Shown: positions 1-35,169, counted from the stretch's first letter. The stretch: 64,000 nucleotides of DNA from Parcubacteria bacterium RAAC4_OD1_1 (GCA_000505065.1 AWSN01000001.1:403647-467646), one strand, 5' to 3'. The notes: generated by a model not told the origin, from the sequence alone. Numbers and translations: made by a program.

Positions 1-1021
1 ATAACAATGGATCGATCAGGATTTTCTTTTTCAAATTTTGTAATAGTTAGGCCAATTTCTTTTGTCTCATAAGTCGGTAATTGTTGAGAATTAATAAATA
101 CTCTAGTATGGAGTTTCTTGTCATAATCTTCACCATGAAAAACAATAGCACCATCTGATTCTTTAAAAACTTCCCCAACATTTTCTCTAACTATTTTTTC
201 TCCTATCGGCGCCATCTTACTTTCAAAAAAGTAGTACCCGTCACTAAATTTTGTCCCTAGTAATTTATATATTTCTTCAAAAGCATCTAGTGTTACCTTT
301 CTTCCCCATTCATATATCTCATTTATTTTTTCATTAGACTTATCATAAATTTTTTTATTTATTTCATCTATCTCTTTTTTTATATTTTCATCTGTATCGT
401 AAAAATTACTTCCTTTCGAATAACATTCACCAATATATTGTGCTTTTTCTGACACTGTTTTATTTTCTTCTGGCATCCCAGATTGCAAAAGTCCATATAT
501 TGCTTTTGCAACATGAGGACCAACATCTCCTTGGTAATTTGCACGAATAGTTTCGGCACCAGAAAATTCTACTATTCTAGAAAGAGATTCCCCAATGGCA
601 TTTGTCATAAGATGTCCTATATGAAATGGCTTGAATGGATTTGGGTCAGTATACTCCACCATAATCTTTTTCCCTTCAAGTAAATCGTTCTTCCCCCAAC
701 TATCCCCTTTTTCTAAAATCTCTTTTACTTTTTCTGTAAAAAATTCTCTTGATAAATAAAAATTTATAAACCCAGGTCCCGCAACTTCTATCTTCTCAAT
801 TTCACCGAAGCCTTGCTTCGGTAAACCTTTTAATTCCAATACTATTTTTTCTGCCAAAATCCCCGGGTTTGATTTTAATTGTTTGGCACATATCATTGCT
901 ACATTAGTAGAATAATCCCCATTTTTAAAATCTTCTGGATGTTCAACATTAAAATTAATCTCTTCATTTATTCCAATTTTTTTTAAAGCTTCTTTAATTT
1001 TTTGTTCAATAATATTTTTCA
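1..1021 (-). CDS. argS: Arginyl-tRNA synthetase (partial; C-terminus lies beyond the window start). Not in the ORF track; translated by hand from the reverse strand.
   Basis: Reverse-strand translation starts MKNIIEQKIKEALKKIG with start codon at 1019-1021. It contains EVAGPGFINFY and the class I HIGH-region block VEYTDPNPFKPFHIGHLMTNAIGESLSRIVEFSGAETIRANYQGD, which aligns to E. coli ArgRS. Confidence 0.8.
802..830 (-). repeat. 29-nt palindromic element, copy 1, in-frame inside argS (tcaccgaagccttgcttcggtaaaccttt). Encodes GLPKQGFG.
   Basis: Identical 29-mer recurs at 33896-33924 inside ligA. It carries a 7-bp stem (accgaag/cttcggt) with a 5-nt loop. Confidence 0.75.
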
Positions 1022-2044
1022 TTATATTGCTGGCATTCTATTTGCTAATTTAACAAGTTCTATATCATCATAATGATCTAGTAAATCTTTAGTATCTTTA
1101 TCCAAAAGACCATTTTTTTGTTTTTCTCTTAATATTTCTAAATGCTTCCTTCCAAAAACTTCTTTTTCTGGATCAAAAGAAAAACCAAGACTGTTAAACA
1201 TTGAGCGTATTCTAGTATCTGTTTCTTGAATTTGCCCTACATATTCCCTATCTGGAGCACCATCTTTAAATTTAGGATTCCATGTACCACTAAATTCTTC
1301 AGCTTGTAATAATCCATCTTGAGCGGCATGTCCTAATTCATGAGATAATGTTTTTTCATCTATATATTTTCTTTCTGATATCATTCCATCTTGCACTCTA
1401 AGCGGAGGAACAATATTTTCTTTCATAAATACAGAATTTTTAGCTTCTTCTGGTAAATCATCCCTACCCCCAGGGGAATAAAAACCTGCACCATCTAAGA
1501 CTTCTGTTTCGTTAGTCATTTCAGAAATTACACTCTTGAGTTCTTCATATTTTTCTCTTGGTAAAATAACAGTCTTCACATTGTTTGTATTATTGATTAA
1601 CCATTCTTTTATGTTTAAAATATCTTCTTCTGTGGCTCCTTTTAATCTCAATCTTCTTTCTAACTCAGGAGAGTTAGCCCAATCAATTTTTGATTGTTTA
1701 GTTTTCTCAATAATATCTTTATAATCACCAGAAACGTCTGATTTTAATATTTCAGATAATCTAGTTTCTAATTCTTGTTTTTTATTTTCCAATCTTATAA
1801 TTTTATTTTTATTAAAATCAACTGAAGGAATAATTATTTCTCCTGTTAAACCTAATTCACTTCTAATATCACCAACTCTTTGAGTTGTTGTAATTATTGT
1901 TTCTTCGTTTGTATTTATTTTATTAGAAATATCCTTAATTTCTGATTCTAATTGATTAGAATCAGAAAGAGAAATCGATGTAGGTTCTTTTTCTACATTA
2001 ATCAAATTTTCTTTATTATTTTTTTGAATTTCTATTTCTTCCAT
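1022..2044 (-). CDS. Hypothetical protein with HExxH zinc-metallopeptidase motif (HELGHAAQ) and an N-terminal E/K/N-rich region
   Basis: 340-aa ORF. HELGH motif near residue 235. No recognisable family beyond the motif. Confidence 0.5.
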   Translation of the reverse strand: MEEIEIQKNNKENLINVEKEPTSISLSDSNQLESEIKDISNKINTNEETIITTTQRVGDIRSELGLTGEIIIPSVDFNKNKIIRLENKKQELETRLSEILKSDVSGDYKDIIEKTKQSKIDWANSPELERRLRLKGATEEDILNIKEWLINNTNNVKTVILPREKYEELKSVISEMTNETEVLDGAGFYSPGGRDDLPEEAKNSVFMKENIVPPLRVQDGMISERKYIDEKTLSHELGHAAQDGLLQAEEFSGTWNPKFKDGAPDREYVGQIQETDTRIRSMFNSLGFSFDPEKEVFGRKHLEILREKQKNGLLDKDTKDLLDHYDDIELVKLANRMPAI

Positions 2045-2082
2045 TTTTATATTTGAATATAATTTGCAAATCTTTCTCAGAC

Positions 2083-2505
2083 TTATTTCCTCCCTGTTGA
2101 TCCAAATGCTCCCTCTCCTCGAGAAGACTCACTTAATGTATCAGAAAATTCAATTTCGGGAATGGATACAGGAACTATCACCAACTGGGAAACCTTATCC
2201 CCCATCTCTACAGTATATGGCTCAGGGCTTAAATTTACAAGATGAGTATTATATTCCCCTCTATAACCTGCGTCAAATACTCCTCCTAAAGTATGGAGAC
2301 CTGCTTTTGAGATGCTCGATTTGTCAAAGATTTTCGCCATATATCCTTCAGGAAATTCCATCGCAAATCCATGCCAAAATCTATAATGCTCTCCTGGCTT
2401 TATGGTCACAGTCTCCATCGCATACATATCCATCCCTACATCACCAGGATGAGCATAGCTTGGTAATTTTGCATCATCTTTTAATTTTTTAATTTTAATT
2501 TTCAT
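2083..2505 (-). CDS. dut: dUTP diphosphatase
   Basis: The C-terminus (RGEGAFGSTGRK) carries the dUTPase GFGSTG motif. Start is likely the internal MKIKIKKLKDDAKLP rather than the ORF-track Met at 2523. Confidence 0.85.
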   Translation of the reverse strand: MKIKIKKLKDDAKLPSYAHPGDVGMDMYAMETVTIKPGEHYRFWHGFAMEFPEGYMAKIFDKSSISKAGLHTLGGVFDAGYRGEYNTHLVNLSPEPYTVEMGDKVSQLVIVPVSIPEIEFSDTLSESSRGEGAFGSTGRK

Positions 2506-2506
2506 T

Positions 2507-32844: not shown

Positions 32845-32850
32845 AAAAAA

Positions 32851-33147
32851 TTACAAGATTTTATCTACCTTTAAATACCTTCCTTCTTTTTCAGGCATAT
32901 TTGAGATAATTTGAGATGAAAAATCAGGACGTCCCTCATCATAAACATCATCTCTTAATATATTTGTAAGATCTTTTCTTTCAAGTTTTATATTAATACT
33001 CCCAAGCATTTCTTTTGCTTTTCTTATCTGATCTACATAATCTAAAATAGGGCCAAAATCTTTTGCAATCCCCTCCATTTCATCCTCGGACATATCTATC
33101 CTAGACATCTCTGCTAATTTTTTAATATCTTCTAATCCTATTACCAT
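32851..33147 (-). CDS. gatC: Amidotransferase subunit C
   Basis: 98 aa. MVIGLEDIKKLAEMSRIDMSEDEME matches the GatC N-terminus. Directly upstream of gatA. Confidence 0.8.
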   Translation of the reverse strand: MVIGLEDIKKLAEMSRIDMSEDEMEGIAKDFGPILDYVDQIRKAKEMLGSINIKLERKDLTNILRDDVYDEGRPDFSSQIISNMPEKEGRYLKVDKIL

Positions 33148-33165
33148 ATTTAAAATATAGCATAT

Positions 33166-35169
33166 TTAAATCATTTTTAGAAATTCATCTTCTGTGATGA
33201 TTTTTACACCAAACTTTTTAGCCTCATTATATTTAGATCCAGGGTTTTCTCCTATTATAAGATAACTTGTTTTAGGTGAGACAGAAGATGCAACCTTGCC
33301 CCCATTTTCTATAATATTTTTCTTTGCAAGTTCTCTTGGCATAGAGGAAAGTGTGCCAGTAAGTACAAATGTTTGACCAATAAATTTACCTGTTTTCTTT
33401 TTCTCTTCTATTATTTTAACTCCATTTGTCAATAATTTCTCAATAAATATTAAATTATTTTTATCAGAAAAATATTCCACTATACTAAGGGATACTATTG
33501 GTCCAATATTCTCAATACTATTTATTTCATCTTTATTTGCTTTCATTAAATTCCCTAGTATATGAAAATGATCTGCCAAATCTCTCGCCGTCTGCTCCCC
33601 CACATGGACTATTCCAAGTGCATAAATAAATCTCCATAAAGAAATTTTTTTATGATCTTCTATTGAATTTATAATGTTTTCTGCGGATTTTTCTCCAAAT
33701 CTTTCAAGCCCTGAAAGATCAACTTTTTCTAAAGTAAACAAATCAGATGCATCTGTAATAAGCCCTTCGTCTTTCAATCTTTCTAAAATCTTTGGACCAA
33801 TCTCATAAATCTCATAAACATTTACAAAATGCTCCATTGCTCGACTGTTTTTCGCCGGACAATTTTTATTAGTACAATAATAAGCAACAGAATTATCACC
33901 GAAGCCTTGCTTCGGTAAACCTTTATTTTGTAATACTTTTGAATTACATACTGGACAGAATTCTGGCATTTTAAATTTCTTTTCTTTCCCGGTTCTCATT
34001 CCAACCAAAACCTCTACAACTTCTGGTATCACATCCCCCGCCTTTTGAATAACAACAGTATCTTCTATCTTTAATCCCAATCTTTCTATTTGATCCATAT
34101 TATGGAGTGTCGCTTTGGACACCATAGACCCAGCTACAAGAGTAGGAGAAAAATGAGCCACAGGAGTAAGAACTCCGGTACGCCCCACAGAAACAGATAT
34201 GTCTTTTACTATTGTTGTTGCACGCTCTGCTGGGTATTTATAAGCTACCATATAGCGAGGAGCTTTGCCGACTATTCCTAGACTGTTTTGAATGGAAAGT
34301 TCATCTATAGATACAACCATTCCATCTGTCCCAAAAGGTAAATCATTTCTTTTTTTTCCAATTTCTTCTATAAAAATATTTACTTCTTCTAAATTTTTAG
34401 CTTTTTTCTCAAAAATAGGAACTTGGAAACCTAACTCTCGAAGAAATTTATGTTTTTCGGAATGATTCATTATTTCTTTACCTGAAACTATTATATCCCA
34501 AGCAAAAAATTCAAGCCTTCTTTCTTTAACAATATTTGGATCAAGCTGACGAAGGCTCCCTGCTGCAGCATTCCTTGTATTTGCAAAAGTTGGCTTACCT
34601 TCTTTTTCTTGCTTTTTATTTATTTCCTCCCAAATTTTTTTGAGCATTATAACTTCTCCTCTAACTTCTAAATATGAGGGTGATCCTTTTGGTAATATAA
34701 GTGGAATAGAATTTATCATTTTTACATTCTCTGTAATATCCTCCCCTATAAATCCATCTCCACGAGTTGCCCCACGCACAAGCACCCCATATTCATAAAT
34801 TAATGAAGTAGAAAGTCCATCTAATTTAAGCTCACAAAAATATGTATGATCTTTATTTATAAGTTTAGATATTCTTTTCTCCCAAGAAGATAATTCTTCA
34901 AAAGAAAAAACATCATTCATTGAAAGCATCCTCTCTTTGTGTTTTACTTTTTCAAATTTTGAAAGAGGTTTCCCTGCTACTCTTTCAAGAGAAGTATCTG
35001 TATCTTTAAAATCTGGATTCTCCTCTTCAAGAAGACGAAGTTCTCTCATCAAAGATTCATAAACATCGTCTGTCACCTTTGGGTTATTTTTAGTATGATA
35101 TTCCTCCCTTAAACGAGAAATCTCTTCCCGAAGCTTTTTTATTCGGTTTTTAATATCATTTTTAGACAT
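33166..35169 (-). CDS. ligA: NAD-dependent DNA ligase
   Basis: Adenylation site KLDGLS, a Cys4 zinc finger (CPVC…C..C) and a C-terminal BRCT domain. Carries the 29-nt element in the zinc-finger loop. Confidence 0.95.
33896..33924 (-). repeat. 29-nt palindromic element, copy 2, in-frame inside ligA between the two Cys pairs of the zinc finger ([21 protein letters not shown])
   Basis: Identical to 802-830. Confidence 0.75.

Follow-up and report, generated by a model that had tools for sequence, protein, structure and literature searches.

What places the same 29 nucleotides inside two unrelated essential genes? The question arises in a 64,000-nt stretch of Parcubacteria bacterium RAAC4_OD1_1 (GCA_000505065.1, AWSN01000001.1:403647-467646; hereafter the window), in which the sequence TCACCGAAGCCTTGCTTCGGTAAACCTTT has exactly two matches, at plus-strand positions 802–830 and 33896–33924. 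Both lie inside minus-strand genes, the first within argS (3–1022; the N-terminal 340 codons, with the start codon at 1022–1020 and the gene continuing past the window start) and the second within ligA, which encodes a 667-amino-acid (aa) NAD-dependent DNA ligase (33166–35169). The copies are translated in the identical frame, giving KGLPKQGFG followed by E in arginyl-tRNA synthetase (ArgRS) and by D in LigA. No third match was found in the window with up to three mismatches allowed, and none in 100 shuffles. A preliminary description of this DNA had reported the pair, its strand and its frame, and the coordinates and two-copy count were reproduced. We conclude that the 29-mer probably represents two copies of a palindromic hairpin element, of the type formed by repetitive extragenic palindromes (REPs) and REP-associated tyrosine transposases (RAYTs), which have survived in tolerant protein loops.

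The core of the 29-mer, ACCGAAGC-CTT-GCTTCGGT, pairs without mismatch over 8 bp (ACCGAAGC/GCTTCGGT) around a loop of 3 nt, a better description than the 7-bp stem and 5-nt loop first proposed for this hairpin. The DNA fold has a value of −8.3 kcal/mol (z = −5.2), and the GC content of the core is 48%, compared to 31% for the window. The codons for KGLPKQGFG are identical in both genes, including CCG, GGC and TTC, which are rare in this 31% GC genome. An ENA assembly (L129) is 100% identical to window positions 1–11022, and the argS copy is therefore not an artefact of one assembly.

The mobile unit is shorter than the 29 nt originally taken as the element. Comparison of alleles points to a unit of about 21 nt, TTACCGAAGC-AAG-GCTTCGGT, often following AAAGGT. 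This unit would occupy 804–824 in argS (coding strand TTACCGAAGCAAGGCTTCGGT) and 33898–33918 in ligA, in each case adjoined by a coding-strand AAAGGT (825–830 and 33919–33924). In MurE, two genomes carry the filled allele AAG GGT TTA CCG AAG CAA GGC TTC GGT AAA and a third (82% protein identity) carries the empty allele AAA GGT AAT, a clean 21-nt difference with GGT at both edges. PyrD is filled in a related contig (L022) and empty in the window's own pyrD (10620–11747), the difference being 24 nt, while LigA with the 21-nt unit taken out fits the K-K-G-[DES] pattern of its relatives. Either AAAGGT or AAGGGT stands directly 5′ of the unit in ArgRS, LigA, MurE and two intergenic copies, so that part of the 29-nt identity is shared flank. 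AAAGGT is already present at the empty MurE site and may be a preferred target, a proposal resting on that one clean empty site. At the MurE site (L011, L015 and L033), the sequence downstream of the insertion is AAA CCC in filled alleles and AAT GGG in the empty one; the change lets this flank pair with GGGTTT on the upstream side, giving a 14-bp stem, and the palindrome seems to have grown after insertion.

The pair in the window has many further counterparts in related genomes. A scan for the 19-nt core in a 596 Gb collection, one genome per species, gave 48 copies in 40 loci, and 40 of these copies fall in 11 Patescibacteria assemblies. The other eight, in all remaining genomes, are terminator-like matches in unrelated bacteria (about four would be expected by chance, assuming uniform composition), and the viral contigs scanned for the core gave no matches. 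Related assemblies carry between one and eight exact cores, diverged copies lying outside this count: eight each in JBAYHJ01 and CAZGTE01, five in LBRL01 (a 704-kb Nomurabacteria contig), and four each in JBAYKP01 and DATKGV01. The hairpin family is thus dispersed at low copy number in Paceibacteria-type Patescibacteria. Two subfamilies are distinguished by outer stems that co-vary: Paceibacteria-type genomes have TTT...AAA, and two metagenome-assembled genomes labelled Saccharibacteria have AAC...GTT.

At least 13 host genes were found, with copies in three reading frames and both orientations. They include ArgRS (two sites), LigA, MurE, PyrD, TsaD, TsaE, MiaA, TruB, UvrC, Ung and RecJ, together with a cysteine-desulfurase-like open reading frame (ORF) and the Y1 transposase-like gene itself (hosts were named by Pfam, except UvrC, PyrD and the desulfurase-like ORF, which were named by eye). 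Other copies occupy spacers, for example upstream of recR, and about 16 of the approximately 33 independent copies are well inside long ORFs. The encoded peptide depends on the frame: PKQGFG in eight independent events, RSKASV in five, and, in the opposite orientation, PKPCFG or RSLASV in three. The AAG loop is on the coding strand in 13 of the 16 in-gene copies. The 19-nt core is free of stop codons in all six frames (adding the TT extension brings a terminal TAA into one reverse frame) and the unit length is a multiple of three, so a copy in a tolerant protein loop stays translatable. Since the same DNA recurs in other frames and in spacers, the identity between argS and ligA is one of DNA rather than protein, as first proposed, and the 40 core copies in genes and spacers bear out the idea of a very small, dispersed palindromic element that tolerates translation.

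Two local arrangements were observed among these copies. In L030 (1923–1966) and L031 (4485–4528), two inverted hairpin copies surround GAGCTC as a REPIN-like doublet; the L030 doublet is upstream of recR, where the orthologous position of L035 has a single copy. In L006, two copies 1.4 kb apart (579–597 and 1983–2001), one of them near the end of the cysteine-desulfurase-like gene, share identical flanks of at least 30 nt on each side, which suggests a duplicated segment rather than two insertions.

In related genomes, the hairpin of argS and ligA (hairpin A) is the cognate palindrome of an IS200/RAYT-type Y1 (HUH) transposase. In JBAYHJ01, two adjacent contig chunks (L040 and L023) join into a 243-aa ORF of the Y1_Tnp family, with hairpin A at its 3′ end, just upstream of its start (inverted), and once inside, right after the HUH motif. 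CAZGTE01 encodes a 233-aa Y1_Tnp protein (34.1 bits; cut-off 23) with three copies of hairpin A, upstream and internal. The homologue in the window is a 222-aa gene on the minus strand (38471–39136), scoring 32.7 bits against the same Pfam model and 44% identical to the JBAYHJ01 protein. Its HUH motif is NHFHI and its tyrosine motif YIHLNP; NHFH and YIHLNP are conserved in the family alignments.

The window gene is flanked by a different palindrome, B, which on the gene strand is ACGCAAGAA-CCG-TTCTTGCGC upstream (39167–39187) and GCGCAAGAA-CGG-TTCTTGCGC just downstream of the stop codon (38434–38454), with the loop inverted relative to the upstream copy. Both are preceded by direct half-repeats of the left arm (ATACGCAAGAACC), as in the JBAYKP01 orthologue (L131), which has ACCTAGCAAGAA-CCG-TTCTTGCTAGGT on both sides and a solitary copy 700 nt away. 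Orthologous transposases carry related palindromes (window versus L131), whereas paralogues carry different ones (L040 and L023 versus L097). The L097 paralogue, 53% identical and very probably on the same JBAYHJ01 contig as L040 and L023 (equal length, shared metagenome), is flanked by palindrome C, which also occurs in ArgRS. The window has its own copy of palindrome C, AAGTCCAGGC-AAG-GCCTGGACTT, in the intergenic region between two convergent ORFs (6669–6691), flanked by A and T runs, and its 19-nt core is the one beside the L097 gene.

The association between gene and palindrome recurs in metagenomes. A metagenome scan gave 80 loci homologous to the transposase-like gene, and in 37 of the 72 with both flanks available the same perfect palindrome stood on both sides (about 50 nt upstream and 10–60 nt downstream), compared with 0 of 39 displaced controls. 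Loop orientation was mixed, 15 inverted and 18 direct. The family has more than 7,800 matches, and its members are 67–77% identical among Paceibacteria, similar to ArgRS (about 75%). When 6-residue peptides from 123 transposase-flanking palindromes were compared with the LigA and ArgRS sets, five matched, against 0–5 with shuffled arms, which is not significant; individual matches at ArgRS hot spots were then verified in DNA.

The position of the gene is not conserved. In the window it lies between prepilin peptidase and pilin genes (38380–39230), where L123–L125 have no gene, and an A24 peptidase is nearby in only 2 of the 80 loci. Three tandem pilin genes with near-identical N-termini and repeated upstream regions (39323–40937) adjoin it, and a full type IV pilus cluster (41036–48165) is near.

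Because the hairpin family is tied to a Y1 transposase gene, and intragenic REPs have already been described (PMC3733652), it does not constitute a new class of selfish element, as had been suggested. In its main point, that a small palindromic element is tolerated in frame, the preliminary description was right, but it overstated the novelty.

The closest relative of the window genome (GCA_964618365.1) is syntenic with the window and has neither hairpin, at 91% aa identity in ArgRS and 81% in LigA, so the peptide is not common to all relatives. The insert is present in other ArgRS relatives. It does not amount to the 9 aa proposed: relative to the closest orthologues the net gain is just three codons in ArgRS and five in LigA. 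The ArgRS difference is three codons rather than seven, the relative's AAA GAT TTA CCT AAA (KDLPK) aligning to the left arm. The argS site is orthologous in at least eight other assemblies. LPKQGFG occurs in 11 of 120 ArgRS orthologues, which take at least seven separate placements on a neighbour-joining tree made with the hot spots masked, and the alleles with the hairpin also agree in residues upstream of it (IV.EL, where others have IK.ELEK). Repeated gain or loss could produce such a pattern, and so could short-patch exchange between lineages.

Among seven full-length hairpin-bearing ArgRS sequences, none of the 21 positions of the unit varies, compared to 31 of 78 in the flanks. At third codon positions the figures are 0 of 7 and 20 of 26 (Fisher p = 4e-4), a test biased by the finding of most sequences through an exact core match; L126 and L127, picked by protein only, agree with the invariance. 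An eighth sequence (L003), two codons shorter, also has the exact unit, which is thus invariant in eight species. Elsewhere the site holds other perfect palindromes. L128 has CCCTAGGC-AAG-GCCTAGGG, in which three pairs differ from hairpin A in both arms and every pair is intact, and L130 has TGCGTTAGG-CAAGA-CCTAACGCA, the palindrome flanking the transposase gene in L090; the L130 hairpin was predicted from the peptide CVRQDLTQ and then confirmed in DNA.

A second ArgRS hot spot is at the start of the DALR domain. The argS of the window genome (P0121, L129) has an in-frame TGTCCAGGC-AAG-GCCTGGACA near residue 479, just beyond the window, with the same core as the intergenic hairpin at 6669–6691. 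The DALR site of the JBAYHJ01 ArgRS (L025) carries hairpin C with one C-to-T change that turns a G-C pair into G-T (a G-U wobble if RNA), and the same variant is found downstream of the L097 transposase gene.

The LigA insert lies between the two Cys pairs of the zinc finger. The spacer is indeed lengthened, to 23 residues compared with 12 in Thermus filiformis (1DGS), and not to 19 aa as first counted; the second pair is C-x4-C rather than C..C. Across 110 relatives the spacer ranges from 12 to 71 residues, about 50 exceeding 30, and insert peptides recur; many of these LigA proteins have no Pfam zinc-finger match. Three further LigA inserts were inspected as DNA, and two are clear palindromes: a near-perfect inverted repeat of about 130 nt in L123 (−78.8 kcal/mol over the region) and a perfect stem of 18 bp in L125. 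The L124 insert gives a less clean fold (−45.7 kcal/mol).

What is observed is that the hairpin is dispersed, that orthologous sites can be filled or empty, that its nucleotides are conserved and that it is associated with a transposase gene; the reading of the 29-mer as a REP/RAYT-type element joins these observations. By analogy with E. coli RAYT and IS608 TnpA, the Y1 enzyme would recognise the hairpin in single-stranded DNA, then cut and rejoin it. Its action could seed new copies 3′ of an AAAGGT-like target or re-copy existing ones. Copies would last only where a stop-free insert, a multiple of three in length, meets a tolerant loop, and in ArgRS and LigA the peptide KGLPKQGFG would be made by read-through.

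Several points weigh against this reading. Copy numbers are far below those of classical REPs, and the only transposase homologue in the visible 75 kb of the 693-kb genome is flanked by palindrome B, not hairpin A. The NCBIfam RAYT model NF047646 was not matched at its cut-off of 80 bits (39.1 and 26.4 bits), a profile search of PDB by sequence with the transposase family gave nothing at E ≤ 1, and an AlphaFold2 model of the family, from a 43-sequence alignment, was unusable (mean pLDDT 39.9). With their mixed loop orientation, the flanking palindromes would fit either a domesticated RAYT or an autonomous IS200-like element. The ArgRS difference is not a clean 21-nt indel, native KDLPK codons overlapping the left arm, and to judge by the sequences that overlap and the shared V-for-K would fit short-patch allelic exchange as well as transposition. 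Finally, ascertainment was through an exact core match for six of the eight hairpin-bearing ArgRS sequences, and for five of the seven that are full-length.

A stronger form of the REP/RAYT reading may be entertained, although we consider it rather unlikely. The in-gene hairpins would then not be passive scars but would be kept identical over species divergence; selection could do this, or re-copying by the enzyme at fixed hot spots in LigA (the zinc-finger loop) and ArgRS (two loops). Transposase and hairpins would form a maintained, possibly functional partnership.

The alternative that survives best, unlikely as it is, dispenses with a dedicated transposase: the hairpin would spread by short-patch recombination after DNA uptake, plus microhomology or template-switch copying at half-sites. 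Such half-sites exist, as empty ArgRS alleles encode K[ND]LPK overlapping the left arm and LigA relatives encode KG and GFG at the insert site. The IV.EL residues shared by hairpin alleles in at least seven tree placements, next to an empty sister at 91% identity, fit this route, as does the MurE outer stem, apparently extended by the change from GGG to CCC after insertion. This route does not account for spread into at least 13 unrelated genes, or into spacers that lack a half-site. Nor does it account for the clean insertion of 21 nt in MurE, or for Y1 transposase genes regularly having one and the same palindrome at either end.

Selection on a cis-acting DNA or RNA structure, with dispersal secondary, is an improbable explanation. 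The structure could end or pause transcription, stabilise the mRNA or mark it for processing, or bind the Y1 protein or another factor. In its favour, the unit does not vary in eight species although the synonymous sites beside it are saturated, compensated changes preserve the perfect stem in L128, and the outer stems co-vary (TTT/AAA versus AAC/GTT). Intergenic copies between convergent genes, with A and T runs, also resemble bidirectional terminators. T runs, however, are absent from the in-gene copies, and termination within argS or ligA would be damaging. The host genes are unrelated to one another, the loops that hold the hairpin are variable, the closest relative manages without both copies, and no Rfam family was matched at the argS or ligA site.

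That the transposase gene and its palindromes are an ordinary autonomous IS200-family insertion sequence (IS), with the solitary hairpins as leftover ends, appears very improbable. The Pfam match is to Y1_Tnp, 'Transposase IS200 like', and the sources annotate it likewise; the gene is non-syntenic among relatives, as described above for L123–L125 and for the nearby peptidase, and the flanking hairpins are direct in 18 of 37 loci. Yet the cross-species identity of the family is housekeeping-like, within-genome paralogues are just 53% identical with a palindrome of their own each, and solo ends are unexpected since IS200/IS605 excision is seamless by the established mechanism. Protein-level convergence on GLPKQGFG, or an assembly or cross-contamination artefact, has only the shared peptide in its favour and is refuted by the identical rare codons, the copies in other frames and spacers, and the identical second assembly.

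Three further candidates were rejected. A DNA uptake signal sequence needs about one copy per kb, compared with two in 64 kb and five in 704 kb here. A CRISPR repeat would form a regular array with unique spacers, whereas the two copies are 33 kb apart, each in a conserved gene. Origin in situ by a local template switch fails because a right arm copied from the native left-arm codons would not match the one observed.

The REP/RAYT-type reading can be set against known systems. A RAYT is defined by its HUH and Y motifs and by the REPs that flank it, each RAYT having one REP type of its own and occurring as a single, divergent copy (Nunvar 2010; Bertels & Rainey 2011, PMC3116915; PMC3337134). 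REPs lying entirely within ORFs have been reported, including those for DNA ligase, tRNA synthetases, truB and uvr genes, and the short Rickettsia palindromic elements RPE-4 and RPE-6 have been equated with CGTC REPs (Di Nocera 2013, PMC3733652). Recognition, cutting and rejoining of single-stranded hairpins is known for E. coli RAYT and IS200/IS605 TnpA (PMC3733652, PMC3337134). The Patescibacteria hairpins resemble REPs in being short, GC-rich, repeated palindromes (19-nt core, 21–29-nt conserved unit) within the size range of about 20–40 nt. Each palindrome type has its own flanked HUH/Y1 gene, with divergent paralogues having their own palindromes; intergenic copies are terminator-like, and intragenic copies occur likewise in DNA ligase, tRNA synthetase, truB and uvr genes. 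They differ in that the stem is perfect (imperfect in REPs) and there is no GTAG or CGTC tag, the flanks being (AAAGG)TTT...AAA or AAC...GTT. There are one to eight exact copies per assembly rather than tens to hundreds, about half of them intragenic, whereas REPs are mainly extragenic, and mostly single hairpins rather than doublets. The transposases form a distinct clade of about 220 aa, below the NCBIfam RAYT cut-off, and the hosts are Patescibacteria with genomes of about 0.7 Mb. In the literature searched, no paper on RAYT, REPIN or palindromic elements in Patescibacteria was found.

The likeness to Rickettsia palindromic elements, drawn in the preliminary description, consists in an in-frame palindromic insert in essential genes of a reduced, AT-rich genome, adding a peptide at tolerant protein positions. 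RPE-1, however, is 100–150 bp, compared with about 21 nt here, the sequences are unrelated, and RPEs lack an associated transposase, unlike the present hairpin, which stands at the ends of a Y1 gene. With IS200/IS605 elements (IS608 and ISDra2 TnpA) the hairpins share a HUH/Y1 enzyme and hairpins beside the gene ends. AAAGGT 5′ of the unit resembles their fixed, one-sided 4–5-nt target (TTAC for IS608), and the common orientation of 13 of 16 in-gene copies is as expected for strand-specific, single-strand insertion. The difference is that here a 21-nt hairpin disperses without the gene, and the palindromes are perfect and identical at both ends. GC-rich hairpin elements are also found in AT-rich organelle genomes, as yeast GC clusters and as sponge and placozoan mitochondrial hairpins. 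These likewise spread in a small AT-rich genome, also into coding sequence, but they belong to organelles, have no known transposase partner and tend to be longer. In the same group, coding palindromes with both arms translated are reported from Nematomorpha (PMC6649704).

Other repeats and genes of the window may be noted briefly. GC-rich, perfect, intergenic palindromes with 3–5-nt loops lie at 17765–17783, 20284–20306, 25903–25925 and 58377–58401. Examples are ACGGAGGC-GTT-GCCTCCGT and GCTGGGGGCC-AAA-GGCCCCCAGC, which have the general format of the transposase-flanking ones; they may be terminators, REP-like copies, or both. Between dut and argS is a 340-aa ORF (1022–2044, minus strand) with an HExxH-like motif (HELGH) and no Pfam match. 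The closest relative (L041), like L126 and L128, has argS immediately after dut, which makes the ORF a lineage-specific insertion. A 679-aa ORF (48918–50954) contains five tandem copies (62–86% identity) of a 129-nt unit (50237–50881). Rfam models identify a tmRNA gene (61927–62312, 111.6 bits) and nine tRNA genes, none overlapping the 29-mer copies.

In-frame REPs were already known; what differs here is a perfect, untagged palindrome of very low copy number, about half intragenic, with a distinct transposase clade and in a phylum for which the literature searched describes no such system. REP/RAYT-type systems are thereby extended to a phylum with 0.7-Mb genomes, and the 21-nt unit is about the smallest possible size of a mobile or copied element. 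The hairpins offer a concrete mechanism for the variable, low-complexity loop insertions of Patescibacteria core enzymes, and they can distort marker-gene alignments, the trees built on such genes, and domain calls. The invariance of the unit in ArgRS raises the question of whether selection acts on DNA or RNA structure or whether enzyme-driven homogenisation is at work. If the hairpins and the transposase do form a maintained partnership, it would be one that remodels the surface loops of core proteins in ultra-small genomes.

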